Below are positions 13,148 through 45,787 of a stretch of 64,000 bases of DNA, one piece after another. Every line of letters begins with the position of its first letter. The first letter of the stretch is position 1. The notes beneath the pieces are model-generated. The model was not told where the DNA came from. It did no database searches and was given only the letters and a program-made list of their open reading frames with translations. The DNA lies in the NCBI GenBank assembly GCA_963662795.1, contig OY759746.1, positions 1,440,001 to 1,504,000 of the forward strand, written 5' to 3'. Made by a program: the position numbers and the translations under genes. Source of the stretch: Spirochaetia bacterium (GTDB lineage Bacteria; Spirochaetota; Spirochaetia; CADAEX01).

Positions 13148-14881
13148 TTGAAAATGAGAATAAAAACAGAATATTTTATAAATGCAGTTACAGCCTCAAT
13201 AATGCTTTTTGTTTATACAACTGCAGGAGCTTATCTTCTGCCTGAAGGTATAAACGAAGTCTTTACGGAAAGGACCTGGAAATATTTTCTTATTCTGACA
13301 GTTGTACTTGCTGCTTCATTTGCAGTTTTTTCTCGTATGTGCAAAAACAGGGCCATAATCAATATAGGAAAAATTGAAAAAGTACTGGTTCATGAACTTA
13401 TTTATATCCTGATTCCTCTTACCCCCATTATTCAATACATGATTTCCAACAGGGAAATGCTCACTATATCAAGTTCAATTCTGATAATACTGTTTTTCGG
13501 GATATTATCCTTTGTTCTCTGCGTTGGAATTCCTGTCTTATTATCTTTTACAGCATCAAGACATATCCTGATTTCAGCAGGAACAGCCTTTTTATATTTA
13601 TTATTAAGCATGGTTTCACTTTCCGCAAAATACGGCTGGCACAACAAGGGTTCGCTGAAAATACAAATGCTTGTATTTTTGTCAGCATTTATAATACTGG
13701 CATTTTCAAAATATCTGCCGAAAAAAATATTCATTTCTGCGGTTCTTCTTAATTTACTGATCAACTCCTTTACTTTTTTTTATACCGCGGAAACGGTTAA
13801 TAAAGCGCAGAATAACACTGGAGAAATTACAGTTGGCAGTGAACTTGTAAATAAGGAAATCAAAAAGTTAAACGATATATTTTTGTTTGTTTACGAATCA
13901 TATGCAGATTATGAAACGGTTAAGCATTATGGTTTCGATAACAAAGCGCAACTGGAATATTTAGAAGAAAAAGGTTTTAATATTTACCCAGGAATATATT
14001 CACTGGGTACGCCTTCTATTCCATCCATCTCAAATGTATTTAATATAAACAGCAATGTCCACTACAATAGAGAATATATAATCGGCGGCGGTAATGTTCA
14101 TAAAATATTAAAAACGAAAGGCTATAAATCATACGGTGTTTTTCAAAATGATTATTTCTTTCGGGGAATGGGACCTGATAAAATAAAGTATGATTATCTT
14201 TTTCCTGCCCCGCTTCCTCTAAAAGAAGATAAACTGCTTATTAAGACAATACTGGCCGGTGAATTTAATGATGAAGTCAGTCTTGAGGGTGTTGGTACGG
14301 AATCTTATGTAAATGAAAAACAAAAAATAATTAAAAGTGATTTTCAATATCCAATAATATTTTATACGCATAATCCCAAACCGGGACATGGGCCCAGCGC
14401 CGGGGTGCTTCCTGCGGAAGTAGATAAATATATTGAATTATACATAAACCAGATTCAACAGGTTAACAGAGAAATGGAGCAGGACATTAATCTGGTATTA
14501 AAATATAAACCTGATGCGATAATTATAATTGCAGGGGATCATGGTCCTTCATTAACCAAGTCAGGGTATGGGCTGCAGAAAGGAAAAGGGGGATTCACAG
14601 CCGGGGATGTCGACAGGTATGATATCCAGGATAGATTTGGAGCGTTTCTTGCAATAAAATGGCCGGAAATTAATTATAAGCAAACAGACAAAATAAAAAT
14701 TCTACAGGACATTTTTCCGGCTGTATTCTCATACTTATTTGAGGATGACAAATTATTCAATGAAACAAGAATGGATAGCGAAATATTAAACCCCAAGAAA
14801 ACACTTGGCGTATCAGTTAATGATGGTATTATTGCGGGTGGAGCGGATGATGGTGAGCCGTTATTTTTATTTAAGGAATAA
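13148..14881 (+). CDS. Polytopic membrane protein with C-terminal alkaline-phosphatase/sulfatase-fold (LTA-synthase-like) domain
   Basis: About 7 hydrophobic segments, then FVYESY, PSIPS, HNPKPGH and AGDHG metal/nucleophile-like motifs. Confidence 0.7.
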   Translation: MKMRIKTEYFINAVTASIMLFVYTTAGAYLLPEGINEVFTERTWKYFLILTVVLAASFAVFSRMCKNRAIINIGKIEKVLVHELIYILIPLTPIIQYMISNREMLTISSSILIILFFGILSFVLCVGIPVLLSFTASRHILISAGTAFLYLLLSMVSLSAKYGWHNKGSLKIQMLVFLSAFIILAFSKYLPKKIFISAVLLNLLINSFTFFYTAETVNKAQNNTGEITVGSELVNKEIKKLNDIFLFVYESYADYETVKHYGFDNKAQLEYLEEKGFNIYPGIYSLGTPSIPSISNVFNINSNVHYNREYIIGGGNVHKILKTKGYKSYGVFQNDYFFRGMGPDKIKYDYLFPAPLPLKEDKLLIKTILAGEFNDEVSLEGVGTESYVNEKQKIIKSDFQYPIIFYTHNPKPGHGPSAGVLPAEVDKYIELYINQIQQVNREMEQDINLVLKYKPDAIIIIAGDHGPSLTKSGYGLQKGKGGFTAGDVDRYDIQDRFGAFLAIKWPEINYKQTDKIKILQDIFPAVFSYLFEDDKLFNETRMDSEILNPKKTLGVSVNDGIIAGGADDGEPLFLFKE

Positions 14882-14887
14882 AATAGT

Positions 14888-15580
14888 ATGTTCCATGTTA
14901 TTTACCTGGTTTTTATATATCCAATAGAATTTATTATAAAGACTATACTGGAAACAGCTTATAATTTTACAGGAAATTATGGTTTTTCGCTTATTATCTT
15001 AAGTATTTGTATAAGTTTAATTCTTCTGCCATTTTATCGGTTCACAGAATATTTGCAAAACAGGGAACGAAAAGTAAGGAATAAAATGCAGTCTCAGATA
15101 GACGATCTTAAAAGTGTCTATAAGGGTTATGAACAGCATTTATATCTGAAAGCACTCTACAGGCAGAATAATTATCATCCCTTACTTGCACTGCAGGCGT
15201 CTTTGGGATTGCTGATTCAACTCCCTTTTTTTATCGCAGCATATCATTTTATTTCCGGGTATGAATTACTTAATGGGGTTGTGTTCTGGATTTTTAGGGA
15301 TCTTGGGAATCCTGACGGCCTGATTGAAACGGCCGGGATGAATATAAATATCATGCCTGCTGTCATGACTTTTTTTAATCTTTCAGGTGCTTACTATTAC
15401 GGAAAAAATCTTTCATCTAACGAGAAATACCAAATGTATTTTGTTGCCTTGCTTTTTTTTATTCTTCTTTATAATTCTCCGGCGGGCCTTCTTATTTACT
15501 GGACCTGCAATAATATTTTCAGTTTTATTAAATACATCATTATTCACTTTATGAATATCAGATCGAGTGAAAAAACGTGA
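14888..15580 (+). CDS. Short YidC/Oxa1-family membrane protein (no periplasmic P1 domain)
   Basis: YGFSLIILS…LILLPF, helical hairpin, LIQLPFFIAAY, DLGNPD, PAGLLIYWTCNN. Confidence 0.8.
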   Translation: MFHVIYLVFIYPIEFIIKTILETAYNFTGNYGFSLIILSICISLILLPFYRFTEYLQNRERKVRNKMQSQIDDLKSVYKGYEQHLYLKALYRQNNYHPLLALQASLGLLIQLPFFIAAYHFISGYELLNGVVFWIFRDLGNPDGLIETAGMNINIMPAVMTFFNLSGAYYYGKNLSSNEKYQMYFVALLFFILLYNSPAGLLIYWTCNNIFSFIKYIIIHFMNIRSSEKT

Positions 15581-16892
15581 GGCAAAAATGATTCTTGTTT
15601 GTGTTTTATTTTTAATAATTATTCAACCTGCACATGCATACCTTGATCCCGGAAGCGGAAGTATGCTTATCAGCGTGATAATTGCCTTATTGGCTACATT
15701 GTATTACTTTGCTAAAAATATTTTCTATAATAAATCAAAATATTTTTTTAAAAAAAACAGCAGTATACAGACAGAAAAAAATGATATAGTTTTCTATTCC
15801 GAATCAGGATGCTACTGGAATGTGTTTTTTCCGATTATAAGGGAATTAAGCGAACGCGGGATAACCTCCTCATATTATACCAGCGACAAAAAGGATCCCG
15901 GATTGTCAACCGACATACCTGAACTGGATAAAAAATATATTGGTGACGGGTATGAAGCTTTTTTCTTCTTGAATCATCTTGAAACATGTATTGTTGTGAT
16001 GACCACTCCGGGCTTGGATGTCCTTCAGATAAAACGCAGTAAAAAAGTAAAGCATTACTGTCACATTGTTCATGGTCTTGAAGACACATCCACTTATTCT
16101 CCATACGGTGTTGATTATTTTGATTCTGTGCTGGTCAATGGAGAACATCAGGTTTTTGTAATCAGGGAACTGGAAAAAGAGCGAAGTCTCCCGGAAAAAA
16201 AAGTTGAAATAATTGGAAGTACATATCTTGATGTAATGCGCGAAAATATTAATAAAAAAGTACCTGATAATCTGAATATATTACCAGATAAAAAAACAGT
16301 CCTGCTTGCTCCCAGCTGGGGTGAAAAGGGATTTTTGAAGAACCATGCTGAATCTATACTGAATAGTCTGATTGAAGAAGATTACAATATAATCCTTCGC
16401 CCTCATCCGCAGAGTTTAAAAGCTGAAGCGGATGTTATCAAACTGCTTGAAAATAAATTTGCCGATAAAAAATATTTAATCTGGGACAAAACATCATCAG
16501 GACTTGAAGCAATGCGAAAGTCAGATGTCATGATTTCAGATTTTTCGGGCATAATATTTGATTATATTTTTCTGTTTTCAAAACCTGTTATTGTAACTGA
16601 TTTCAAGTTGGACTGCCGTAAATATGATATGAATATTCTTAAATCAAAAAGCAGCACATTAATGAAATTAATTAATGAAGATAAAATAGGCTACAGGTTT
16701 AAGAGCCGTGATTATAAAAACATTAAGAAAATTGTACAAATCGCATTATCTGATAATCCTTATAAACAATATGTAGATGAAATAAAAGATACAGTTAATT
16801 GTTTTCCGGGACAGGCTGGAAAAAGAGGCGCAGACTTTCTGCAGAGTGAATTGAAAAAGATAGTAACTGATAAAAATAAAGGTACCAGATGA
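15567..16892 (+). CDS. CDP-glycerol:glycerophosphotransferase-like (TagB/TagF family) with signal peptide and YLDPGSGS-TM anchor
   Basis: MTTPGLD, HIVHG, LLAPSWG, LRPHP, ISDFSGIIFDY. Confidence 0.8.
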   Translation: MKKREAKMILVCVLFLIIIQPAHAYLDPGSGSMLISVIIALLATLYYFAKNIFYNKSKYFFKKNSSIQTEKNDIVFYSESGCYWNVFFPIIRELSERGITSSYYTSDKKDPGLSTDIPELDKKYIGDGYEAFFFLNHLETCIVVMTTPGLDVLQIKRSKKVKHYCHIVHGLEDTSTYSPYGVDYFDSVLVNGEHQVFVIRELEKERSLPEKKVEIIGSTYLDVMRENINKKVPDNLNILPDKKTVLLAPSWGEKGFLKNHAESILNSLIEEDYNIILRPHPQSLKAEADVIKLLENKFADKKYLIWDKTSSGLEAMRKSDVMISDFSGIIFDYIFLFSKPVIVTDFKLDCRKYDMNILKSKSSTLMKLINEDKIGYRFKSRDYKNIKKIVQIALSDNPYKQYVDEIKDTVNCFPGQAGKRGADFLQSELKKIVTDKNKGTR

Positions 16893-19225
16893 AAACTGAC
16901 CGCTTAAACAATCACACCCTGCTTATATTGTTATTGGCTTTCGTCATCATTGTCCCCTGGATGTGTGTAGATTTCCTGACAAGTGTTTTAGATGCGGCGA
17001 ATAAAAAAATTGTATCATCCATCCATAATGCTGTTGTGCTTCCAGTCCGTGTAAAGCTTACCGGGCTTGATGATGAACAGCTCTCCCTGGTCCGGGTTTA
17101 CCGTGTATCCCCAAGGGGTAACCGCAGTTTATACCGCCTTAATGAAGGCGTTTTCTATAAAGAAGCAAAATATTTTGCAGATATTGAACTTGAAATTCTT
17201 GATAGCGATATTTCTGACTTTGAGAAAATTACTCTGGAAACAGGAAGTCGTGAATATGAAGTATTACCTGAAAATCTTATAACTGCGGATAGCAAAAGTC
17301 TGGCTGATTCTTCATCGGTATTTTCACTTAAAAAAACATTTAATCTTAAAAAATCAAAGTCTTTTATCCCTCAGTTCAAAGGTTTGATAAATTATCGCGG
17401 TGACATGCAAATGGTATTACTGATTTTTTTACGTACAGCGATCCCTGTGATTATTTCCCTTTTACTGTTTTTATGGTGGTCGCGTTTTTCACCTGTATTG
17501 CTTTTTACTTTGTCCTGGTTTGTGATTGGAATTGCCGGATTTCTTTTAAGTCCTGTATATCTGCAGATCCGGCATTTAATCTTTACATATTTTCTTATTT
17601 CAATACGTAATGGTTTTTATATTGTGTTTTTATATTCTTCATTGAAAATAATAACACAGAAAAAGTCTTCCCTTGCTGAAATCGATCCAGATAATAACAA
17701 TAATTCAATATTTACTTTTGCAGCAGTGATTTCAATTTTTATTGCCGCCTTTGTGCTCCGGATCTGGAATCTCAATTATATGCAGGGTGTTGATACTTTC
17801 AATCTTACATCTGCCCGTGCGTTAAATGATACAGGTGTTTTTTCCTATCTGCGGAACTGGGATCTCACATACATGCTTGCCTGGGTTTTTAGAAATTTTG
17901 GAATTAGCCTGACTGCGGCAAGGTTGCCTTTTGTGCTTATTTCTCTTGTTATTATGGGTCTTACCGGATTAATGCTTCGACAATTCGGCCGGAAAGCTTT
18001 ATTAACAGGCCTTATATTATATGCAATATCACCGGTTGCAATTGAAAAAGCAAGTGTTATCCGTGAATATGGTGAAAATGTTTTTCTTACAGCATTAATC
18101 TGCACAATACTTCTGGCTGTTTATGTTAAATATAGAAAACGGATGTTTACAGCTCTGTTTTGGATGACAATTGTGATATCTTTTTTCTCCATTGCCATTC
18201 TGATCTACGGCCCTGCTGTACGGAATTTAACAATAAATACCTCGCTTCAGGCATCAGGTTTTCTCTACATATCCCTGTCTGTCATGCTCCTGTGGAATAA
18301 TTATCCGTCGCTTAAGCGAATAATTATAGCCGCAGGACTCATCTGCGTAATCACTGTTTTTGTAATAGCGCCGAAACTTGGACCTTTTTCAGGCAGATTT
18401 CGTCCCTCTTTTAATTTTATTTTCTTTTATTTTAACCCAATGGTGCATCATCCCATGCAATGGTTTTCTTTCCAGAGCATAGGATTGGTACTGCCTCTTA
18501 TGCTGCCGGTTTTTGCTCTTTTTAACCGGAAAAACAGGGATGTTATTATAGCGGTATTTATGACTTTTTTTGGCAGTATCGCTTTATTTTCTGTATATAT
18601 GGGCAATACGATAAGAAGCAGATATCTTTATCATATATCCCCATTTTATATTATTCTTATAACTCTTGGACTTATCTGGCTTTGGGAAAAAATATCTGAA
18701 CATGAGCTTTCTGATAAAGCAGGAAAAAGATATAAATTGAGGGGCTTTTTTATTGCCGGATGTGTATTAATATTCTGGCTGCCGAATACAGTTATTGCCG
18801 CAAAGCATGAAATCCCTTCAGGTCAGGAAAGGGATGTAACTTCTTTCGGTTATCGCGATTATTTTATCGATTTTTATGAATATTTAATTGCAAGCGGGTT
18901 AAGAAAATCTGATGCAATTGTTATGGAAACTCACAGACCTGACCTTCTATGCTGGCTTCTTGACCGGCCGGTAAATAATAAATATGTTATTAAACGTGGA
19001 AGCTATGATATATCAGAAAATATGTATCTTGAAAATGTCTATGGCGTAAAACAGCTTGAAACGGCCGTTGAAAAACATGATAAAGGTTATTTTATTACAA
19101 GAAATGTTGCATATGACAGAAATCCCGTTTTTATAAAAGGTATTAAACTTAAATATTTAACAACTATTCATAATCATTCTTTTTATATCTGGGACAAAAA
19201 AATTAGCGGATCTAAAAAAAGTTAA
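16889..19225 (+). CDS. Polytopic GT-C-type (ArnT/PMT-like) glycosyltransferase
   Basis: More than 10 TM segments; FVLRIWNL, AARLPFV, IREY, RSRYL. Confidence 0.6.
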   Translation: MKTDRLNNHTLLILLLAFVIIVPWMCVDFLTSVLDAANKKIVSSIHNAVVLPVRVKLTGLDDEQLSLVRVYRVSPRGNRSLYRLNEGVFYKEAKYFADIELEILDSDISDFEKITLETGSREYEVLPENLITADSKSLADSSSVFSLKKTFNLKKSKSFIPQFKGLINYRGDMQMVLLIFLRTAIPVIISLLLFLWWSRFSPVLLFTLSWFVIGIAGFLLSPVYLQIRHLIFTYFLISIRNGFYIVFLYSSLKIITQKKSSLAEIDPDNNNNSIFTFAAVISIFIAAFVLRIWNLNYMQGVDTFNLTSARALNDTGVFSYLRNWDLTYMLAWVFRNFGISLTAARLPFVLISLVIMGLTGLMLRQFGRKALLTGLILYAISPVAIEKASVIREYGENVFLTALICTILLAVYVKYRKRMFTALFWMTIVISFFSIAILIYGPAVRNLTINTSLQASGFLYISLSVMLLWNNYPSLKRIIIAAGLICVITVFVIAPKLGPFSGRFRPSFNFIFFYFNPMVHHPMQWFSFQSIGLVLPLMLPVFALFNRKNRDVIIAVFMTFFGSIALFSVYMGNTIRSRYLYHISPFYIILITLGLIWLWEKISEHELSDKAGKRYKLRGFFIAGCVLIFWLPNTVIAAKHEIPSGQERDVTSFGYRDYFIDFYEYLIASGLRKSDAIVMETHRPDLLCWLLDRPVNNKYVIKRGSYDISENMYLENVYGVKQLETAVEKHDKGYFITRNVAYDRNPVFIKGIKLKYLTTIHNHSFYIWDKKISGSKKS

Positions 19226-20191: not shown

Positions 20192-20977
20192 ATGGAAATT
20201 AAAAATACTTCAATAAGAGAAAAGGCAAATTTATATCTTGATACTTATGAATATATAAATAGCGTATTTGAAAAAAACTTTGGATATTCACTTTATTTTA
20301 TCGGCGGTACACTACTGGGATATATAAGAGAGAATGATTTTCTTGAAAATGATAAGGATATGGATATTTCATATTTTTCAAAATATGAAAATGTATCAGA
20401 TGTAAAAAAAGAGATGATTGAGATATGTGAAAAACTTATCGAGCTTGATGAACCATTAATTTTTATCAGATCAGGATTTACTACTGTAAAATATTTCATT
20501 AAATATAAAATTAATGAAACAGAAGATGACAGAATTGATATAATGCCTACATGGATTCAAAATGGAAAAATATACAGACCGACATTTGTCGGTTATAATG
20601 GTACCAGAGAAATTATCTTTCCTCTAAGGAAGGAAATATTTTATGGTCATAATGTATACATTCCGAATCAGGCGGAAATGAAACTTGCCAAAGTCTATGG
20701 GGAGAGCTGGAGGATTCCTGATAAAGATTTTAAAAAAAAGAAAAGACGCGACCGAGACACGATAAAAGTAATTACTGAACAACTTTATTATGGTGATGAA
20801 TGCAGATATCTTGTAAAAAAAACAAAGCAATGGAAGGATTTATCACCTTTTATGAAGATGGTATTGAATATTATTCTTATGCGAAGACATAACTTAATTT
20901 CCAAAATATTGCCTAAATCCGGAAAAATTAAACGAAAAATATTGAAAAAAATAAATTCGATAATCAGGAAAAAATAA
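20192..20977 (+). CDS. LicD-family phosphotransferase
   Basis: GGTLLGYIRE…DKDMD, RIDI, YGESWRIP. Confidence 0.75.
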   Translation: MEIKNTSIREKANLYLDTYEYINSVFEKNFGYSLYFIGGTLLGYIRENDFLENDKDMDISYFSKYENVSDVKKEMIEICEKLIELDEPLIFIRSGFTTVKYFIKYKINETEDDRIDIMPTWIQNGKIYRPTFVGYNGTREIIFPLRKEIFYGHNVYIPNQAEMKLAKVYGESWRIPDKDFKKKKRRDRDTIKVITEQLYYGDECRYLVKKTKQWKDLSPFMKMVLNIILMRRHNLISKILPKSGKIKRKILKKINSIIRKK

Positions 20978-20995
20978 ATTATTAAAGGGATACTT

Positions 20996-21424
20996 ATGAA
21001 AATTATTGGATACACAACAGGAGTTTTTGACCTTTTTCATGTGGGTCATCTGAATATTCTTCGAAACGCAAGGCTTGAATGCGACTATCTTATTGTTGGT
21101 ATTACTACAGACGAATTGTCAGAAGAAAAAAAAGGGAAAAAACCGATTATTCCGTTTTCTGAGAGAATGGAAATAGTTGAAAATATCAAATTCGTTGATA
21201 ACGTAGTACCACAGACAAATTATAATAAGATGGAGGCCTGGAATAATCTTCATTTTAACAAAATGTTTGTTGGTGATGACTGGAAAGGCAGTGATAAATG
21301 GCAACAGCTGGAAGATGATTTTAAAAAACTTGGAGTAGAAATATGTTATTTCCCTTATACAAAACATACTTCAAGTACAAAGATTAGAAATATTATTGAC
21401 GCCATGGAAAAAATGGAAGAATAA
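20996..21424 (+). CDS. tagD: Glycerol-3-phosphate cytidylyltransferase-like
   Basis: GVFDLFHVGH (HxGH), VGDDWKG, YTKHTSSTK. Confidence 0.85.
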   Translation: MKIIGYTTGVFDLFHVGHLNILRNARLECDYLIVGITTDELSEEKKGKKPIIPFSERMEIVENIKFVDNVVPQTNYNKMEAWNNLHFNKMFVGDDWKGSDKWQQLEDDFKKLGVEICYFPYTKHTSSTKIRNIIDAMEKMEE

Positions 21425-21440
21425 CAGAAGGGGTAACTGG

Positions 21441-22214
21441 ATGTCGCGTATAAGAGGCAAGGCACATGAATTCTTAAATGCATATGAGCATATGAACGAT
21501 GTAATGGAAAAGAAATTTGGATACAGCCTTTATTTTATAGGAGGTACCCTTCTTGGATATATCCGGGAAAATGATTTTCTCGAAAATGATAAGGATATGG
21601 ATATTTCTTATTTTTCAAAATATACCAATGTGTCTGATGTAAGGAAAGAAATACTTGATATTATAGATACTTTGATTAATTCAGGCGAACAGCTTTATTT
21701 TATAAGAAGCAGTTATTCAATAGTTAATAAATATTTCAGATGGCAGGTTGATGAAAGGGACCGGATTGATATAATGCCCACCTGGTGCCAGGATGGTATG
21801 ATATACCGGCCGACTTTTGTTGCATACAAAGGTAATAGTGATATAATTTTACCTTTAAAAAAAGAAAAATTTTATGGACATAATATTTATATCCCCAATA
21901 AACCTGAATTAAAACTTGCCAACGTATATGGCGAAACCTGGAAAATACCTGACTCCGGATTTAAAAAAGATTCGAGGAGAAATATTTATTCCGCAGATAT
22001 ACTTGAAAAGCAATTAAATTTCGCAGATGAAGCATGGCTATTTGCTAAAAGAACACGGCAATGGAAAGATTTTTCATTTATTGAAAAAGCATTCATGAAT
22101 CTTGTTGTAAAACAGAAAGTTAAGGTTATTGCAAAAATACTGCCAAACAGAAAATGGTTTAAAAAAAAGATTTTTATGAAACTAAGGAAATTGCTAAAAA
22201 ACGATAAAATCTGA
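21441..22214 (+). CDS. LicD-family phosphotransferase, paralog of 20192..20977
   Basis: Identical YSLYFIGGTLLGYIRENDFLENDKDMDISYFSKY block; ATG at 21441 with GAAGGGG upstream preferred over TTG at 21396. Confidence 0.75.
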   Translation: MSRIRGKAHEFLNAYEHMNDVMEKKFGYSLYFIGGTLLGYIRENDFLENDKDMDISYFSKYTNVSDVRKEILDIIDTLINSGEQLYFIRSSYSIVNKYFRWQVDERDRIDIMPTWCQDGMIYRPTFVAYKGNSDIILPLKKEKFYGHNIYIPNKPELKLANVYGETWKIPDSGFKKDSRRNIYSADILEKQLNFADEAWLFAKRTRQWKDFSFIEKAFMNLVVKQKVKVIAKILPNRKWFKKKIFMKLRKLLKNDKI

Positions 22215-24278: not shown

Positions 24279-25646
24279 TTGAGAAAAGTTATACGGGACA
24301 TTGCCGGGAAACTGTCTGAAAAACTGGTAAGGATTATGCCTTTCAGGTATTTCCCCGCATCGCATATTCTGCTGGAGCAGTTTTTCAGATACAGGATGAG
24401 GAAAAATGATTTCAGGGCAGTAAGGGATTACTGCCTTTATTTTTCAGAAAAACCTGGTTCACCTGATAAAATAAAAAAAATATCAGCTGATTACTTCTGT
24501 AAAATAAGCCTTGATGACAAGCCTGATATTGATGTAATAAAAAACTTAAGGACCGGATATCAGGAAAAAATATCACAGAGCCTGGATTTTCTTGCTTCGG
24601 GTGAAAAAGAGAAGGCATGTTCTTCATTCGTGGATGCCCTGCCTTTCGCCGGAATTCCACGGCCGGCTGCCTCTCATCTTGAAAAGGCTTTCAGTATTGT
24701 CACAGGCAGCTCTTCAGGGGAAAAAAAGGCTTCTGCCTGCGGTGACTCAGAAAATGATTATAGGCAGGCGAAAAAAATAATCCTTTCCGGAATGTACTGG
24801 AGCGGCACCGGCGCTTTGTATGATTTCTTCAGGGAGTTTGAGGATGTAAAGGCCTTGCCTGTTGAGCAGCGGCTCTGGAAGGAATCGGACTACAGCCTCG
24901 GCTGGGGGCTTAAAAATATAGAGACAATTGATGATGAAGGTTTGAGACAATACTTTTTGAGGCTTTTTCTGATACCCCTTACCGGGCTTGCCATGCCCCG
25001 ATGCTGGCAGGATGTTCTCGGCGGAAAAGTCGGCATTAATTCAGTTAAAAATGATAAAAACGGAAAATATTCGCTTTCCATATCTAAATTCTTTAGTACA
25101 ATAACAGATTTGAGAGCGGAAAAAAAGCTTGATTATTCCTCTTTTTTAAGCTCTTCTGCTGTATTTACTGACCGGCTTCTAAACGCGCTTTCGGGTGATT
25201 TCAGCGGAAGTATCCTTCCTGACAACGCTGTTCATATCGGCGATATTGAGAATTTCAGATTTTTCAGCAACGCGCACCTTGTTTGTGTTTTCAGGGACCC
25301 CCGCTCAAATTACGCTGCGCGTTATCACGAAAACATTCGGTTCAGAAAAAATCCTGAGGACTTTATAAAATACTACCGCGGGACAAGGGAAAATTATGTT
25401 AAGCAATTGTCCGCCTTTAAGGACTGTTCAGATAAAATCATTGAAGTGCAGTTTGAGGATTTTATTCTCTCGGAAGAATACAGAAAATCGCTTGCTGAAA
25501 AGCTTGGTCTTGATCATTCACTCTGGAGCAGGCGTAAGTATTTCAGGGCCCATAAATCGGTGAAGAATGTTTACAATTACAGGAATTTCTCCGACAAAGC
25601 AGTCATGGATTTAATCGGCAGCTCGCTTAAGGAGTACTGTGTTTGA
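24279..25646 (+). CDS. Sulfotransferase-fold (P-loop) protein
   Basis: SGMYWSGTGALYD (5'-PSB-like) and VFRDPRSNY (3'-PB-like), FEDF. Confidence 0.55.
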   Translation: MRKVIRDIAGKLSEKLVRIMPFRYFPASHILLEQFFRYRMRKNDFRAVRDYCLYFSEKPGSPDKIKKISADYFCKISLDDKPDIDVIKNLRTGYQEKISQSLDFLASGEKEKACSSFVDALPFAGIPRPAASHLEKAFSIVTGSSSGEKKASACGDSENDYRQAKKIILSGMYWSGTGALYDFFREFEDVKALPVEQRLWKESDYSLGWGLKNIETIDDEGLRQYFLRLFLIPLTGLAMPRCWQDVLGGKVGINSVKNDKNGKYSLSISKFFSTITDLRAEKKLDYSSFLSSSAVFTDRLLNALSGDFSGSILPDNAVHIGDIENFRFFSNAHLVCVFRDPRSNYAARYHENIRFRKNPEDFIKYYRGTRENYVKQLSAFKDCSDKIIEVQFEDFILSEEYRKSLAEKLGLDHSLWSRRKYFRAHKSVKNVYNYRNFSDKAVMDLIGSSLKEYCV

Positions 25647-26854: not shown

Positions 26855-27994
26855 TTGAATATCGTAGTTGAGAATATTGTAAAAAATTCTTTAGGCAGAG
26901 GTATGATACAATTTGGATTTATTATTCTTAAAATAGTAAAAAATTTATCTATATATAATTTTGCCTATTACTTTTACCCAATTAATCCTCCTGAAAAGCC
27001 AGGCTATGTGACATCTGCCGGCAGAAAAGGAATCTCAGGATTTGCTATTGGAAGTGAAAAGGATGTCCCTTCAAAGATCGAACTTCTGGTTGACGGCAAC
27101 GTGATAAATACAACTTACGCTGCGCAGAAAATATATTCCCCTTCAAAATATTACGGTGAATTTACAGGATTTTATTTTCCGATGAAACATCTATGGAATT
27201 TAATTGATAAAAAACAAAAAATTGAAGTTTTAGCAGAAGGAAAACCTCTCAGATTCCGTGCCGGTAAAAATGGGGAAGCCGTGATTCCAAATTTGGGTAA
27301 ATTGGGAACGAATGAAAAAAAATCTGAAAAAAATATTATTGATTATATATCAGAAGGTAATTTGATTAATAAATTTGGACGATTACAGCCGCCAAGAAAT
27401 AAAAATATTGAATGGACTACAAAAGTATTATCATCTTTTATTTATGTTAATCAGTTGTTTGAGAAATATTTTAAAAAGCAGCTTTTCGTTTTTTACGGGG
27501 GGCTTCTCGGCTTTGCAAGAGAAGGTGGTATAATCTCTCATGACTGTGATATGGACCTTGCGTATTTCAGCGAGGAAACCGATGCTGACAAGGTCCGGGA
27601 TGAGTTTTATAGGATAGCGGAAAAACTGATAAGGGAGTGCAGTGATCTTGTTATTTCTGTGTCTAAAATTAATTTTACAAAAATGAAAGTAAGTATTACC
27701 CCTGCCTGGATAACCCCGGATGGTGATTTTGCATGCACCTTTGCCTATGTAGGCGATAAATTTAAAGTAACAAGGGAAGATATCCTGCCGCTTAAAAAGA
27801 CAGAGTATGAAGGTTATGAGTTAAACCTTCCCGCCAATCCTGTGAATGTTGTAAAATACCTTTACGGCAGAGGCTGGAAGTATCCTGACCCGGGGTGGAA
27901 ATGGCTGATTGAGTATAAGCTGCGACCGGCAATATTTAAAGCAAGACTTACAAGTTCTCAGGTTAAAAAATTAAACAAAATTATTTCTCAATAA
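26855..27994 (+). CDS. LicD-family phosphotransferase with extra N-terminal domain
   Basis: YGGLLGFAREGGIISHDCDMD, LYGRGWKYPD; AGGAG upstream of TTG start. Confidence 0.7.
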   Translation: MNIVVENIVKNSLGRGMIQFGFIILKIVKNLSIYNFAYYFYPINPPEKPGYVTSAGRKGISGFAIGSEKDVPSKIELLVDGNVINTTYAAQKIYSPSKYYGEFTGFYFPMKHLWNLIDKKQKIEVLAEGKPLRFRAGKNGEAVIPNLGKLGTNEKKSEKNIIDYISEGNLINKFGRLQPPRNKNIEWTTKVLSSFIYVNQLFEKYFKKQLFVFYGGLLGFAREGGIISHDCDMDLAYFSEETDADKVRDEFYRIAEKLIRECSDLVISVSKINFTKMKVSITPAWITPDGDFACTFAYVGDKFKVTREDILPLKKTEYEGYELNLPANPVNVVKYLYGRGWKYPDPGWKWLIEYKLRPAIFKARLTSSQVKKLNKIISQ

Positions 27995-29648: not shown

Positions 29649-30971
29649 ATGGCAGAGAATAAAAAAACCGTTTATGTCGGCATGAGCGCAGACCTTATTC
29701 ACCCAGGCCACCTCAATATATTAAAGCACGCCAGGGAGCTTGGTTCAGTGACGGTAGGCCTGCTTACAGACAAGGCCATCGCGAGCTATAAAAGGCTTCC
29801 CTACATGACCTTTGAGCAGAGAAAGCAGGTTATAGAAAATATAAAAGGGGTGGATTCTGTAGTGGCACAGGATACACTTGATTATGTCCCGAACCTTAAG
29901 CAGTATAAACCGGACTTTGTTGTCCACGGCGATGACTGGAGGGAGGGGGTCCAGAGGAAGACACGCCAGAGCGTTATTGATGCCTTATCACAGTGGGGTG
30001 GCGAGCTTGTTGAAGTTTCATACACTCCCGATATTTCATCGACAAGGCTCAATGACGGGCTTAAAAAAATGGGTACAACTCCGCAGAGAAGGCTCGGGAT
30101 GCTGCGCCGCCTGATAAACGCCAAACCTGTAGTTACATTCATGGAAGCGCACAGCGGCCTGAGCGGGCTGATAATCGAGAACATCAGTGAAAACGATGGA
30201 AAAGGTGTAAAAAAGGTTTTTGACGGAATCTGGCTTTCAAGCTTTACGAATTCCGCAAGCCGCGGAAAACCTGATATAGAAGCTGTCGATGTAACAGCGA
30301 GGATACAGACTTTAAATGAGATAATCGAGGTTACTACAAAACCTGTTATCTATGACGCGGGAAGCGGCGGCAGGGGAGAGCATTTCGGCTTTACCGTGAG
30401 GACCCTTGAGCGCTTCGGTGTTTCCGCCGCGGTAATTGAGGATAAGGCATCTTTTTCACGGAATGAGGGAAATCCTGAGAACGCGAACGCCGCAGGCGCC
30501 CTGGTTGATATAAATGAATTCTGCCGGAAAATTGAGGCCGGAAAAAAGTCCAGGGTAACGGATGATTTTATGGTAATTGCCAAGCTTGAAAGCCTTGTTT
30601 CCGGCATGGGAACAGGTGAGGCGATGAAAAGGGCCTCCGCGTATCTCGAGGCAGGGGCTGACGGGATACTTATTCACAGCCGCGGCAGTGACGGACGTGA
30701 CATACATGAGTTCTGCAGTAAATTCAGGGGTAAGGGACTTAAGGCCCCTCTTGCTGCAATGCCTACTTCCTATAACAGCGTTTATGAATCGGAACTGCAC
30801 GAAATGGGCATAAATATAATAATCCACGCCAATCATCTGATCAGGAGCGCATACCCCGCGATGACAAAAGCCGCGAAAATGGTTTTAAAATACGGGCGTT
30901 CATTCGAGTCGGATCAAATGACGGTACCGGTGGAGGAAATTTTATCTGTCATACCTGAAGGGGACTGGTAA
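29649..30971 (+). CDS. Cytidylyltransferase / phosphoenolpyruvate mutase-like fusion (mutase motifs degenerate)
   Basis: [14 protein letters not shown]; [27 protein letters not shown]. Confidence 0.85.
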
Positions 30972-36665: not shown

Positions 36666-37733
36666 GTGAACAAAGATATTAATTACGCCGGCCGCCGGTT
36701 GGGCATATTTACCGCAGGGTTCCGCTGGAGCGGGTCAAGCGCGTTAAGCGACTGGCTTGAATCATTTTCATCAGTCAGAAAACCGCCGGGATGCCAGGCT
36801 GCCTATGATGAAATCAGGGCTCTTAACTATGGCCTTACTCTTGTGATAAAGGCAGTTGAGAAAACGCCCCTTTACGGCGAGCAGCTTTCCAGGTACTCAA
36901 TGTATCCCGATAAGAGCCGGTGGAACAGTATCTTCGGAAAGCCCCTTTCCCTGAAGACAGTATGCACTGATGCCCTGTTTATGACTGCCGCGAAAGGAAA
37001 GCTTAATCCGGGCCTTGAAAGCTACGGCCCTCTTTTAAGCACTTCCCTCGGCCGGGACTACAGAAGCGATACTGAATATATCAAAACCATAGGTAATCTG
37101 ACAGAAGCGGCCAGAAGCCTCATCAAAAAATATCCCGGCAGGCGTAGCTGGGAAGCTGTTGCGGGAGATAAGGATTTTTCCTCATCTGTTTCGGCCTTTC
37201 TCGGGCTTTTTTATGAAAGGCTCAGCTCATCCGGCGTTGTCCCGGTCTTTGATAACGCGATATCAGCCCTTAATCCCCGGTTTTTTGATCTTGTGGAAAA
37301 CTCTGTTTTCCCCGTGCAGCTTATCATGTTTGTAAAACGGGACCCGAGGGACCAGTTCGCGGAGCTTGTAAAATACAGCGCTAAAACTTTTTCCTTTATG
37401 GTCCGCTCTTTCATAAAGGATTACAGAAGGAACATAACCCGCTCCTTAAACTACACTTCCATATCAGGCGGCCGCCCGGATTCAGGGAAAATCATCCGGC
37501 TGATAGATTTTGAGGATTTTGTTTATGATACAAGCGGAATCAGAAGGGAGATGGGATCAGTTCTTTCAGGGCTTCTCTCTGATTTTTCATTTTCCGCTGA
37601 TTTTGATCCCCGTTTTTTTAATCCAGAAAAATCCAAACCTAATATCGGGATATGGAAAAATTCCGGAATGAAAAAGGAAATGGATCTGATTAAAAAAAGT
37701 CTGCCCGAATTCCTCAGGCCGGAATCTGACTGA
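36666..37733 (+). CDS. Sulfotransferase-fold (P-loop) protein, paralog of 24279..25646
   Basis: AGFRWSGSSALSD, VKRDPRDQF, FEDF, NIGIWK. Confidence 0.55.
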   Translation: MNKDINYAGRRLGIFTAGFRWSGSSALSDWLESFSSVRKPPGCQAAYDEIRALNYGLTLVIKAVEKTPLYGEQLSRYSMYPDKSRWNSIFGKPLSLKTVCTDALFMTAAKGKLNPGLESYGPLLSTSLGRDYRSDTEYIKTIGNLTEAARSLIKKYPGRRSWEAVAGDKDFSSSVSAFLGLFYERLSSSGVVPVFDNAISALNPRFFDLVENSVFPVQLIMFVKRDPRDQFAELVKYSAKTFSFMVRSFIKDYRRNITRSLNYTSISGGRPDSGKIIRLIDFEDFVYDTSGIRREMGSVLSGLLSDFSFSADFDPRFFNPEKSKPNIGIWKNSGMKKEMDLIKKSLPEFLRPESD

Positions 37734-41213: not shown

Positions 41214-43997
41214 ATGCTGGATTTTTTTTATACACTGTTTATTTTTCCGATTGAAACTGTAATCAGTGTTTTTTACTGGTTATTTCTGCAGATGTTTGAA
41301 ATACACGGGATCGCCATCATCTGCCTGAGCGTTACCGTAAATATTATACTTCTTCCGCTCTACAATGTCGCCGAAAGGTGGCAGCAGAGGGAAAGGAATA
41401 TCCAGGCTCATCTTAAAAATAAACTTGATGATATAAGGGCCGTATTTAAGGGCGCAGAGCGTCACATGATAATAAGGACATATTACCGGCAGAACCACTA
41501 TCATCCATTTTATTCTTTAAGAAATGTGATAGGGCTTGCAATACAGATCCCCTTTTTTATAGCGGCATATCATTTTTTAAGCCATATGCCGATGTCAGCA
41601 AAAACCAGTTCATATTATTTTATTAAAGATCTCATGCGCCCTGACGCGTTATTGACTGTTTCAGGCCTTTCCATAAATCTGCTTCCCGTAGTCATGACTG
41701 TGATAAACCTTGTTTCCGCGTTTGTTTATTCCGGCAAGCTTCAGAAAAAGGAAAAAAACCAGCTTTTTATAATGGCGCTGCTCTTTCTTGTACTTCTTTA
41801 TAATTCTCCGGCCGGGCTTGTCCTTTACTGGACAATGAATAATGTGATATCCCTGATCAAGAATATTATAAACTCAGGCCGGAATCCCAGGAAGTATTTT
41901 TATATTACTCTTGCTGGTTTTGCAGCTTTCATGTTTGTTTACTCCCTGTTGTTGAGATATCCCCTGTTCATGAGACTGGCCGGCCTTGATGGGTTTGTTT
42001 TTAAGGCAAAAAAAATACGGCAGATAAATATAATTACAGGAAGTTTTTTTGCTTTTGTTTTATTGTTTCCGGTATTTTCAAAATTTATCCATAAAGCAGT
42101 TGAAAATATATTTTCAGGATTAAAGAATTCCCTAAAGGACGGAACAGCTGTTTTTGCGTTATCGTGCATAATATTGTTTATGCTGACAGGCCTTGTTGCC
42201 CCTTCATTTCTGATTTCAGGTTCTCCGCTTGAGTTTGCGGAAGTTATCTCCGGCGGCAACTATAACCCCTCCTGGGCAATAGTTAAATCTGCACTGCAGG
42301 CCTTTTCCCTGTTTATTTTTATTCCTTCTGTAATTTATATCCTTTTCTCCAGGGATGTAAAAAAATACCTGATCCTTTTATCTTTCCTTTTTGCGGTGAC
42401 GGCTCTTGTAAACATTTTTATCTTTTCCGGCTCCTACGGGGTAATCAGTCCGGATTTTACATTTGATAATTCACAGATACTGAAGCCTGAAGTGTATCAG
42501 GTTTTTCTTAACTTTTCTGGAATAGTATCTGCTGCGGCTCTAAGCGTTTTCTTAATTAAAAAAAAATATTATAAAATTATAAACAATTTATTAATTATAA
42601 TAATAATTTCACTTGCAAGTATTTCTGCTTTTAATATACATAAAATCAATTCAGAATTTCGCCACATGCTTTCCTATAATTCTGTTTTGACTTTTGAGGA
42701 AAAAAATCAAAAATCCAAGAATATTTTTACTTTATCAAAAAAAGGAGAAAATGTTTTTGTTATAATGTTGGACAGGGCCCTTGGCGGACTGATGGGTGAG
42801 GTTTTAAACCATAATCCTGAGTTTCTGGAGCAAATGACGGGTTTTGTCTGGTATCCAAATACAGTTTCTTTTAACGGACATACCCTGCTGGGCGCACCGC
42901 CTCTTTTCGGCGGTTATGAATATACGCCAGTTGAAATGAATAAACGTGATAAATTGCCGCTTGTAGATAAGCATAATGAAGCTCTTCTCGTAATGCCTCG
43001 TATTTTTCTTGAAAGTGGATATGAAGTTAAAGTTACAGATCCGAGTAATGCCAACTATTCTGAAATACCGGATCTCAGTATTTTTAAGGAGTATCCCGGC
43101 ATAAAGGCAGAATTAATTGTCGGTAAATTCACCTCAGACTGGATTAATGAAAATATTAAAGATGATTCAAATAGTAACATTTCAGAAGTATTGAATGAAT
43201 ATCTTCTAAATTTCAGTATTTTCAGAATAGCACCTAATTTCCTTCGAAGCAGAATTTATGACAGCTCCAGATGGTTAAAGCCTGTTAAGGCAAACCTTCC
43301 TCTTAGGTTCATAGACAGTTATTCTATTCTTGATTATCTCCCCAGGATAACAGGGTTTGATGCGGAAAAAAATACTTTCAATATGACTGTTAATTATACA
43401 ATTCATGAACCCAGAATACTTAATATATACTTACCTGAAGAGTTCAGAAGTACTCTGTCAGAAGATTTCAACTATAAAACTTCAATTCAGGACAGCTATA
43501 CGCTTAAACATTTTTATACTCAGATTGGGGCATTTCAAAAACTATGTAAATGGTTTAATTATTTAAAAGAGAATAATGTTTATTCCAATACAAAGATAAT
43601 AATCGTTTCAGATCACGGCCGTCGTGATATAGTCGATCCGTTTTTTATTAACTTTTCAGATGATAATAAACTAACAAATAATTATACATATTATCATCCT
43701 TTACTGCTTGTAAAAGAATTTAATGCAGAAGGAAAACTAAAAATCTCTGATGACTTTATGACAAACGCAGATGTTCCATCAATTGCTGTTTCACATCTGG
43801 ATAATGGAGTTAATCCGTTTACAGGCAACCCAATTAAAGGTGAACAGAAGAAGGACGGAGTGGATATTGTAACAGTTCATACCTGGAAAGAAGATCTTAA
43901 CTACAGTAAATATAAATTCAAATTTTCAGATAAAGATATTATTCATGTAAAAAATAATATTTTCATAAAAGAGAACTGGACTGGGATTATTAAATGA
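41214..43997 (+). CDS. YidC-like domain fused to membrane linker and sulfatase/LTA-synthase-fold domain
   Basis: N-term IQIPFFIAAY, PAGLVLYWTMNN; C-term IMLDRA, GHTLLG, IHEP, VSDHG. Confidence 0.8.
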   Translation: MLDFFYTLFIFPIETVISVFYWLFLQMFEIHGIAIICLSVTVNIILLPLYNVAERWQQRERNIQAHLKNKLDDIRAVFKGAERHMIIRTYYRQNHYHPFYSLRNVIGLAIQIPFFIAAYHFLSHMPMSAKTSSYYFIKDLMRPDALLTVSGLSINLLPVVMTVINLVSAFVYSGKLQKKEKNQLFIMALLFLVLLYNSPAGLVLYWTMNNVISLIKNIINSGRNPRKYFYITLAGFAAFMFVYSLLLRYPLFMRLAGLDGFVFKAKKIRQINIITGSFFAFVLLFPVFSKFIHKAVENIFSGLKNSLKDGTAVFALSCIILFMLTGLVAPSFLISGSPLEFAEVISGGNYNPSWAIVKSALQAFSLFIFIPSVIYILFSRDVKKYLILLSFLFAVTALVNIFIFSGSYGVISPDFTFDNSQILKPEVYQVFLNFSGIVSAAALSVFLIKKKYYKIINNLLIIIIISLASISAFNIHKINSEFRHMLSYNSVLTFEEKNQKSKNIFTLSKKGENVFVIMLDRALGGLMGEVLNHNPEFLEQMTGFVWYPNTVSFNGHTLLGAPPLFGGYEYTPVEMNKRDKLPLVDKHNEALLVMPRIFLESGYEVKVTDPSNANYSEIPDLSIFKEYPGIKAELIVGKFTSDWINENIKDDSNSNISEVLNEYLLNFSIFRIAPNFLRSRIYDSSRWLKPVKANLPLRFIDSYSILDYLPRITGFDAEKNTFNMTVNYTIHEPRILNIYLPEEFRSTLSEDFNYKTSIQDSYTLKHFYTQIGAFQKLCKWFNYLKENNVYSNTKIIIVSDHGRRDIVDPFFINFSDDNKLTNNYTYYHPLLLVKEFNAEGKLKISDDFMTNADVPSIAVSHLDNGVNPFTGNPIKGEQKKDGVDIVTVHTWKEDLNYSKYKFKFSDKDIIHVKNNIFIKENWTGIIK

Positions 43998-45280
43998 AAT
44001 TCCAATTTTACATCTTTTATTTTATTTTTATCAACACGTTTCTTGTACAGGCTTATATAGATCCGGGTACAGGGAGCATGCTGTTTGCCGTGCTGACCGG
44101 AATAATCTCAACTCTTTTCTTTGCCGGAAAAACACTGTTTATAAGACTGAAGACTTTGCCGTTCTGGTATAAAAAAGATAAAACAGCAGTTTCCGGAGCA
44201 GAAAGAAAGAAATATGTTTTTTATTCTGAAGGAAAGCAGTACTGGAATGTCTTTAAACCTGTTATTGATGAATTCATCAGGCGTAAACTTTCATGCAGTT
44301 ATTATACATCGGATAAGGAAGACCCGGGCCTTGAAGTCTCATCTGAATTTGTTAAACCGGAGTTTATCGGGAGAGGTAATATGGCCTATTCAAAACTGAA
44401 TATGCTTGAGACTGATATCTGTGTTATGACAACTCCCGGTCTTGATGTTTACCAGCTTGAAAGATCTAAAGGGGTAAAGCATTACAGCCATATACTCCAT
44501 GCGGTAGACGATACTACCCTCTATAAACTTTTCAGTTTTGATTATTATGATTCCATGTTTCTTTCAGGGGAATATCAGAAAGAAAGCATCAGGGAGCTTG
44601 AGGCTAAAAGGGGAACAAAAGAGAAAGACCTGTATGTCACAGGCAGCACATATCTTGATGTTCTCTCATCAAAAGTAAAAACGCTTGATGTAAAGAGAAA
44701 AAATGATGTGATAACTGTTCTCGTATCTCCATCATGGGGAGACAATTCTCTTTTAAAAAAATTCGGACTTAAACTGCTTCTTCCATTGGTTAAGTCAGAA
44801 ATGCGTGTAATATTAAGGCCGCATCCGCAGTCGTCCATTTCTGAAACAGAATTGCTTGATAATATAAAAGAAGGTCTTAAGGATTTTAAAAATGTTGAAT
44901 GGGATTTTTCGCGGGAGAACATAACGTCAATGGCAAGATCTGATATAATGATTTCAGATTTTTCCGGAATTATGTCTGATTACCTGTTTCTTTTTTCAAA
45001 ACCTGTTATCTATACGAGTTATGAATTTGATAAAAGAGGTTATGACTTAAGCGATGTCGAAGGAATCCCCTGGAAATTCAGAATGCTGAAAGAAGCGGCA
45101 GTTGAAATCGGTGAAGAAAATTTTAATGATGTTTCAGCAATAATCAAAAAAACACTTGCCAGCGATGTTGTTTCCAGAAAAATTGAGGAAGCTAAAAACA
45201 CTGCATGGTTCTATCAGGGAAAAGCAGGCGAAAAATGCGCCGATGCGCTTGAAAGTATTCATTCAAACCTTGAAAATTGA
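43994..45280 (+). CDS. CDP-glycerol:glycerophosphotransferase-like with YIDPGTGS-TM anchor, paralog of 15567..16892
   Basis: MTTPGLD, SPSWG, LRPHPQS, ISDFSG. Confidence 0.8.
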   Translation: MKFQFYIFYFIFINTFLVQAYIDPGTGSMLFAVLTGIISTLFFAGKTLFIRLKTLPFWYKKDKTAVSGAERKKYVFYSEGKQYWNVFKPVIDEFIRRKLSCSYYTSDKEDPGLEVSSEFVKPEFIGRGNMAYSKLNMLETDICVMTTPGLDVYQLERSKGVKHYSHILHAVDDTTLYKLFSFDYYDSMFLSGEYQKESIRELEAKRGTKEKDLYVTGSTYLDVLSSKVKTLDVKRKNDVITVLVSPSWGDNSLLKKFGLKLLLPLVKSEMRVILRPHPQSSISETELLDNIKEGLKDFKNVEWDFSRENITSMARSDIMISDFSGIMSDYLFLFSKPVIYTSYEFDKRGYDLSDVEGIPWKFRMLKEAAVEIGEENFNDVSAIIKKTLASDVVSRKIEEAKNTAWFYQGKAGEKCADALESIHSNLEN

Positions 45281-45304: not shown

Positions 45305-45787
45305 TTGAAATATGACAGATGTGTAGTAAACGGCGTATTTGATCTTTTTCATGTAGGGCACGTGAGGCTGCTGCAGAGGGCAAAGGAGATGTTCAAAGAA
45401 GTCGTTGTAACAATCGATTCAGATGAACTTACAATGAAAGAAAAAAGAAGACCGATATTTAATCAGGATGAACGGCTTGAAATAGTAAAGGCATGCAGGT
45501 ACGCCGATGACGCTCTTATTATCGACCGTTCGTGGGGGCCGCACGCGGTTGACCCTGCAATGGTTGATGACTTCATGAACAAGTACAATGTAGATGCTGC
45601 TTTTGTCGCGGCTGACGATGAGGAATATGTTAAATACTGGTTCGGGCATTTGCACAGCCAGGGGCGGGTGGTAATTGTCCCGAGGACAAAATACATATCA
45701 ACAACGCATGTGATAAAGATCGTAAACGGTGAAATTGTAAAGGAAGAAAAAGTGAACCTGCTTAACGGCGGCGGACAGGGTAAATGA
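45305..45787 (+). CDS. Cytidylyltransferase (TagD-like HxGH family)
   Basis: GVFDLFHVGH, PRTKYISTT; GGAGG upstream of TTG. Confidence 0.82.
   Translation: MKYDRCVVNGVFDLFHVGHVRLLQRAKEMFKEVVVTIDSDELTMKEKRRPIFNQDERLEIVKACRYADDALIIDRSWGPHAVDPAMVDDFMNKYNVDAAFVAADDEEYVKYWFGHLHSQGRVVIVPRTKYISTTHVIKIVNGEIVKEEKVNLLNGGGQGK

Follow-up and report, generated by a model that had tools for sequence, protein, structure and literature searches.

Genes at the locus

The window analyzed here is a stretch of 64,000 nucleotides from a Spirochaetia bacterium, which according to a domain scan represents a region of glycan biosynthesis; coordinates refer to this window, and all features whose structure is described lie on its forward strand. 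Six-frame translation of the window revealed the sequences YLDPGSGSML, preceded by AHA and beginning at 15639, and YIDPGTGSML, preceded by VQA and beginning at 44054, with no further match to Y[ILVMF]DPG[ST]G. Because 2.6e-5 six-frame matches to Y[IL]DPG[ST]GS are expected in the window, and because the DNA version of the motif matched twice in the window and not at all in 100 shuffles, chance is rejected as the source of both motifs. The motif pair described in an earlier note on this DNA is thus real, and its flanks are as described there: in both copies a hydrophobic, signal-peptide-like stretch precedes the motif, and 17 uncharged residues forming a transmembrane (TM) stretch and then a Lys follow it.

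The first copy (copy A, 15567..16892) starts with a signal-peptide-like leader ending in AHA (15567..15638), for which GTG 15567 and ATG 15588 are both possible start codons; in the close relative P0001, the protein begins at the ATG. The leader is followed by the tip YLDPGSGS (15639..15662; profile E 8e-14), by the TM stretch with Lys26 and a basic amphipathic segment (15663..15750), and by a CDP-alcohol phosphotransferase of the TagF family (PF04464) with its invariant His. The second copy (copy B, 43994..45280) has the same architecture, with a leader ending in VQA (43994..44053; helical at residues 2-17 in a structural model), the tip YIDPGTGS (44054..44077, likewise found by pattern, shuffles and profile), a TM stretch and amphipathic helix (44078..44170; one continuous helix at residues 24-59 of the model) and a TagF-family phosphotransferase, identified by Pfam, alignment, model and fold search. 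From the AxA-Y pattern, cleavage of a signal peptide just before the motif Tyr is predicted. The two motif-bearing proteins matched PF04464 with 53 and 34 bits (cut-off 22.1). The earlier note had called them TagB-like, a label we do not retain, as neither matched the TarB primase model NF041711 and the match to TarF lay far below cut-off.

A gene with a YidC core lies immediately upstream of each copy. Before copy A this is a short, core-only YidC paralog of 230 aa (14888..15580), itself preceded by a NoeB-like transferase of 577 aa with five TM segments and an alkaline-phosphatase fold (13148..14881). Before copy B, the YidC core is fused to a membrane transferase of the alkaline-phosphatase fold in a protein of 927 aa (41214..43997), and a TagD-like cytidylyltransferase (45305..45787) behind copy B may, by its adjacency, supply the donor. 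A fusion of a cytidylyltransferase with a PEP mutase (29649..30971) points to phosphonate synthesis in the glycan region of the window; it is a candidate donor supply, the same pairing being present with the cassette in other genomes.

Several neighbors are of interest in their own right. LicD-like proteins at 20192-22214 and 26855-27994, around a TagD-like cytidylyltransferase, represent a second phospho-decoration route, with ORF 21396 lacking a Pfam match and resembling 20192 by eye. Two proteins are sulfotransferase-like (24279-25646 and 36666-37733), the first by Pfam match and the second as judged by eye. Directly after copy A, at 16889-19225, lies a multi-pass membrane protein of 778 aa that matched no Pfam or NCBIfam model and could be a GT-C-like enzyme. 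A promoter scan remained at chance level.

Copies A and B are 39.6% identical across 409 aa and hence paralogs, so that their common motif was inherited and does not represent two independent arrivals. A third TagF protein at 25643 has neither the module nor a YidC neighbor in domain and profile scans of the window, as the earlier note had observed. Its best BLAST match to the motif-bearing TagF proteins (E 0.001 across 65 aa) places it in a different subfamily, and it is therefore no matched control. Given this and the paralogy of A and B, the window alone cannot show on what the motif depends.

A family of single-pass membrane peptides

Scanning species genomes with a DNA pattern of the motif detected at least 124 loci in many bacterial phyla and one archaeon; the pattern fixed positions 1, 3-8, 10 and 11, with variants at these positions and motif-less loci lying outside the sample. 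A 38-column profile of the module, built from 121 of the 124 listed sites (three being incomplete) and the two window copies, matched 12,426 clusters at E values up to 0.001. Among the matches listed, a TM stretch directly follows the motif at 121 of 124 loci, and a resemblance to the Gly motif of SAM methyltransferases is rejected on this ground. Among relatives of copy B, the best 120 (window protein included) comprise 116 with Y[IV]DPG, three with a variant G5 and one without the N-terminus. Named relatives of copy B are mostly spirochaetes. Using the N-terminal piece as a query, we retrieved stand-alone proteins of 65-78 aa.

Judged by its sequence, the motif forms the outward-facing tip of a module that spans the membrane once and constitutes a family of its own. 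Searches of Pfam with the two window pieces gave one weak match below cut-off, and searches of NCBIfam with 123 members gave scattered matches, at most two per family. The module profile had no match among PDB sequences, the ESM Atlas returned nothing for the window piece and only unnamed clusters for the family member P0130, and a phage collection yielded no match.

The anatomy of the module is strongly constrained. Its alignment is gap-free, and among the 123 aligned members (of the matches listed) 17 uncharged residues follow S8 in 110, a small residue occupies position 16 in all and position 20 in 90%, and position 26 is K or R in 90%; this spacing and positions 16, 20 and 26 lie outside the fixed positions of the scan pattern. 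No change at Tyr1, Asp3 or Pro4 occurs in any of 394 modules, of which only 119 were chosen by their TagF domain and the rest by the motif profile. The two most degenerate copies (L127 and L128) keep Tyr1, Asp3 and Ser8 with changes at Pro4, Gly5 and Thr6, T6 can be Ala (L127, P0143), and Tyr and Phe swap freely at position 23 of the helix, which is of ordinary hydrophobicity (median KD 2.04). Leaders are of two kinds, some being complete signal peptides that end immediately ahead of the Tyr and others just a few residues long. About half of all members keep the signal peptide, and 38 of the 43 fused members lack it among the matches listed.

In the model of copy B, which has a pLDDT of 61-68 around the motif, the leader is helical, Tyr-Ile-Asp forms a loop and, starting at the Pro, a single helix makes up both the TM and the amphipathic part. 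The leader and the positive-inside residues would place Tyr1 outside. The N-out/C-in topology proposed in the earlier note thus finds support, and so does its suggestion of a structural subunit of the complex, both by way of prediction.

P0143 (161 aa) carries two tandem degenerate modules, possibly because two neighboring genes are read through. Several proteins in which the module seems joined to NoeB or another domain (P0289, P0300, P0304, P0345 and others) look like frameshifts or read-through and were not counted.

Partner enzymes

The partner is, by its sequence features, a transferase of the LtaS/EptA type with an intact active site. A simple hydropathy count places up to about five TM segments before the catalytic domain. 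In 73 aligned domains, duplicates included, the metal-binding D/E, the T/S nucleophile and the His are present in 73 of 73 and the Asp in 71 of 73, at a median identity of about 16%. A model of the 41214 protein (pLDDT 84.6) matched the folds of PbgA/YejM, LtaP, LtaS and EptA, among others. Enzymes of the LtaS/EptA type draw on lipid donors. The transferase at 13148 groups with the NoeA-partnered enzymes of loci L006, L025 and L026 (support 100, quick tree) and yet adjoins YidC and TagF genes. This suggests module swapping, and copy A may have another transferase as its partner. A motif-like YIDPRSDAG inside the NoeB of S. meliloti (L001:6616-8277, residue 26, before the second helix) was found in one of 45 stand-alone transferases and is probably due to chance.

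Upstream of the partner transferase in the proposed pathway are two unrelated kinds of cytoplasmic enzyme, here termed loaders. For the TagF-like domain, Foldseek gave TagF 3L7J as the top match (E 2.5e-14). Two histidines, H169 and H277, are invariant in 93 rows of the TagF-like alignment; H277 aligns with the RMH of TagF, and H169 is presumably its H444. The methyltransferase part of NoeA had weak best matches to WbdD. Donor-making genes were present at 15 of the 28 TagF loci scanned among the matches listed, namely nucleotidyltransferases, PEP mutase (six) and choline kinase (three).

Both YidC-core genes of the window matched PF02096 above cut-off, and with TIGR03592 the one at 14888 scored 92 bits (cut-off 84.3) and the one at 41214 scored 83.8. 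Among the matches listed, all 33 short YidC paralogs have N, S, T or Q in place of the groove Arg, a Lys or Arg occurs in the last TM segment of 32 of 33, and R or K at the groove position is kept only by the two full-length YidC neighbors. In the window, the paralogs at 14888-15580 (Arg to Ser) and 41214-41890 (Arg to Asn) have both lost the groove Arg and carry the conserved Lys of the last helix (FSLxKN). The groove Arg of YidC binds acidic N-tails.

Neighborhood census

Genes within 4 kb of 80 flanked sites, taken from the matches listed (at least 124 loci), were screened with local profiles, and all counts in this and the next two paragraphs, the plasmid test aside, refer to these matches. 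A loader was found at 78 of the 80 sites, TagF-like at 33 and NoeA at 45, with neither at two and both at none. The TagF-like loader is fused to the module at 30 sites and separate at three, whereas NoeA is fused at one of 45, in a Legionella sp. metagenome-assembled genome (L020/P0283). The module is hence N-terminal to two unrelated loaders. This NoeA fusion (L020:1712-3346) lies next to type IV secretion genes.

A membrane transferase of the alkaline-phosphatase fold was detected at 64 of 80 sites and at 50 of the 54 with full flanks, two of those counted having been entered by hand from Pfam matches. The four full-flank sites without one within 4 kb are L009, L014, L019 and L044; the transferase of L014 lies farther along the same contig, by the L015 site. 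YidC, in turn, adjoins 29 of 33 TagF sites but none of the 45 NoeA sites (29 of 80 overall), or 22 of 23 against 0 of 30 when only full flanks are considered, counting neighbors within 4 kb. As four site pairs share a contig and the link between TagF and YidC comprises only two YidC lineages, these counts are not independent, and a Fisher P for that link overstates the independence of the sites.

YidC tracks the loader and not the leader, as called by a crude hydropathy classifier: 20 NoeA sites without a signal peptide have no YidC, and five of six TagF sites with a signal peptide have it. In a reverse test, five diverse loci were picked from the 63 plasmid records that match NoeA. In each of them the peptide gene immediately precedes noeA and the transferase gene follows it, and YidC is absent from all five. 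Of the association between motif and YidC/sulfatase neighbors implied by the earlier note, the sulfatase-like part therefore stands and the YidC part does not. Plasmid searches with the TagF fusion and with the YidC fusion gave no match for either, and neither did a distant DNA search of E. coli genomes with one NoeA cassette.

Some loci deviate from the common arrangement. A stand-alone peptide, a separate TagF-like gene and a full-length YidC occur together at L079:6001-10673 and L019:2278-5377, the partner transferase of L079 being YejM/PbgA-like (DUF3413 plus sulfatase). Tandem YidC-transferase fusions, often outnumbering the peptide-TagF genes, are found at L039/L040, L047/L048, L030, L060 and L077. 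At L076:2310-4097, NoeA is present only as a fragment and a transposase follows right behind the peptide gene.

Relation to known systems

In Sinorhizobium, the peptide is part of the nodL-noeA-noeB operon. On S. meliloti pSymA (CP140953.1) it corresponds to a hypothetical gene of 71 aa between nodL and noeA (L001:4986-5201), and NoeB is the same kind of transferase as that of the window, where TagF-like loaders and YidC paralogs take the place of NoeA. Many plasmid records list no feature under the peptide match, their gene tables being incomplete. In the Legionella neighborhood Lani_1193-1195, the small hypothetical gene Lani_1193 has been reported to adjoin 65% of 816 NoeA homologs, with no family assigned (PMC9758233); Lani_1193 is probably this peptide. 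The role of NoeA and NoeB has been termed hypothesized (PMC9048898), and the accessible parts of these two papers give no family, motif or link to TagF cassettes for the small neighbor of NoeA (PMC9758233; PMC9048898).

The partner transferases share with LtaS, EptA and PbgA (YejM) the five TM segments and outer catalytic domain, the metal ligands and the Thr/Ser nucleophile, but are only 9-14% identical to them and are often fused to a YidC core. Known members of that group draw on bulk phospholipids and, to our knowledge, do without a dedicated loader or microprotein. The fused loaders resemble TagF, TarL and Cps3D in PF04464, in having TagF as top fold match and in the two invariant His, yet with only 16-18% identity to TagF they form a distant subfamily, and they carry an N-out anchor. 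The YidC paralogs share the core domain of YidC/Oxa1, but have neither its groove Arg nor its large periplasmic domain, carry a new Lys and can be fused to an enzyme. M13 procoat has a leader-loop-TM layout, which the peptide resembles; unlike the YidC substrates M13 procoat and Pf3 coat, however, the peptide often occurs without YidC.

A further parallel is the C-terminal acyl shuttle of DltX/PatA, likewise a single-pass microprotein or fused equivalent with an invariant extracytoplasmic Tyr that bridges a cytoplasmic donor and an outer transferase (PMC12148441). The motif of the peptide is N-terminal (YxDPG[TS]GS), whereas that of DltX is C-terminal (FxYxxF), and the cargo of the peptide is by our proposal a phospho-group instead of an acyl group. 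No MBOAT or SGNH protein was found among the cassette neighbors scanned, which covered 58 of 113 on the NoeA side. The enzyme families and the NoeA neighborhood are already known. A literature search of mainly open-access papers turned up neither the motif nor the peptide family, and neither the TagF-YidC-sulfatase cassette nor the replacement of NoeA by TagF plus YidC.

Proposed function and alternatives

We tentatively posit that the module is a coupling subunit of a machinery in which a lipid carrier brings phospho- or phosphono-groups from donors in the cytoplasm to glycans at the surface; that the module is an obligate part of such a decoration cassette is very likely. The cytoplasmic loader would, by its family, take the group from a nucleotide, this being CDP-glycerol, CDP-choline or CMP-phosphonate for TagF-like loaders and ATP, then SAM, for NoeA. 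It would place the group on a membrane carrier, most simply the hydroxyl of a glycerolipid. In TagF cassettes, transport of this bulky and charged carrier to the outside would fall to the altered YidC paralog. The alkaline-phosphatase-fold enzyme with its five TM segments would then transfer the group to the glycan via a Thr/Ser intermediate, as its family and active site suggest. The peptide would join both ends of this pathway: its C-terminal side would hold the loader, fused or separate, the small-residue face of its helix would pack on the transferase, and the fixed length of the helix would set Tyr-x-Asp-Pro at the outer catalytic domain. The fused TagF-like enzyme probably performs a single transfer and is not a polymerase. 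What the sequences show directly are the gene associations, the fusions, the conservation and the intact catalytic residues, and the pathway is deduced from these. E. coli YidC has been reported to scramble lipids in vitro (10.1101/2023.09.01.555937). A lipid carrier would also fit the lipid-based chemistry of enzymes of the LtaS/EptA type. Several observations count against the coupling role. The invariant Tyr-x-Asp exceeds what an adaptor would need with transferases that are about 16% identical, and in NoeA cassettes without a neighboring flippase the crossing step is unexplained. YidC-transferase fusions outnumber the peptides at L030, L060 and L077, four full-flank sites have no detected transferase, and the grouping of 13148 does not follow its location.

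The invariance of the tip would be better explained by a covalent shuttle, in which the phospho-group is bound to Tyr1 itself as an aryl phosphodiester and then passed on to the Thr of the transferase, the YidC paralog moving the loaded tip outward. Tyr1 and Asp3 persist in all 394 modules and even in the degenerate L127 and L128, unlike position 23 with its interchange of Tyr and Phe, and the tip is constant across two unrelated loaders. The fusion of YidC to the acceptor enzyme would suit channeling, and in DltX the invariant Tyr of a microprotein carries D-Ala (PMC12148441). We nevertheless consider this shuttle doubtful. The loaders are cytoplasmic and the tip lies outside, so that the whole helix would have to retract in each cycle; the cassettes lack an MBOAT-like tunnel, those with NoeA lack a dedicated YidC, and a signal peptide would fix the tip outside in about half of the members. 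We know of no precedent for retraction of a whole helix in every cycle. In a fuller version, which appears unlikely, the peptide would be a protein carrier for phospho-groups: cytoplasmic loaders would assemble an activated Tyr phosphodiester at its tip, the loaded tip would be cycled across the membrane by a repurposed YidC, and the fused transferase would unload it onto glycans. If true, this would be a phospho-analog of DltX shuttling, would put an insertase to a new use and would supply the mechanism that noeA/noeB still lack.

An ordinary membrane anchor, with the tip as a mere helix cap kept by common descent, is improbable. Asp3-Pro4 does start the helix in the low-confidence part of the copy B model, as a typical cap would, and the window copies are paralogs, but the tip is invariant over many phyla and an archaeon, both as a separate gene and on two unrelated enzymes, the alignment is gap-free with a helix of fixed length, and a cap would not need an invariant Tyr. 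The earlier note had favored an address or docking tag by which the adjacent YidC paralog recognizes the tip for inserting the anchor of the enzyme. The many TagF sites with YidC would agree with this, and the fused members without a signal peptide have a short N-tail that may need an insertase. The same tip, however, occurs without YidC within 4 kb at all 45 NoeA sites among the matches listed and also at all five loci picked by NoeA instead of by the motif; YidC is independent of leader type, and the paralogs lack the groove Arg with its role in binding acidic N-tails. We regard such a tag as very improbable. Least probable of all is that the peptide is a regulator or a final modified target outside the transfer path. 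NoeA does have a protein-kinase-like domain (PMC9758233) and the tip is rich in hydroxyl residues, but T6 can be Ala, glycan genes and donor pathways surround the cassettes, and a permanent fusion to an enzyme is more in keeping with a subunit than with a product.

Significance

According to our analysis, a large unannotated family of membrane peptides joins NoeA/NoeB with TagF-like enzymes and YidC-sulfatase fusions, systems between which we found no printed link. It opens the rhizobial host-range genes noeA and noeB to experimental tests, and adds a fourth, overlooked gene to the nodL-noeA-noeB operon. The coupling role proposed here would offer a route by which phosphonates and phosphocholine reach the cell surfaces of spirochaetes and gut Bacillota, and the function of the associated YidC subfamily may be carrier transport instead of protein insertion.
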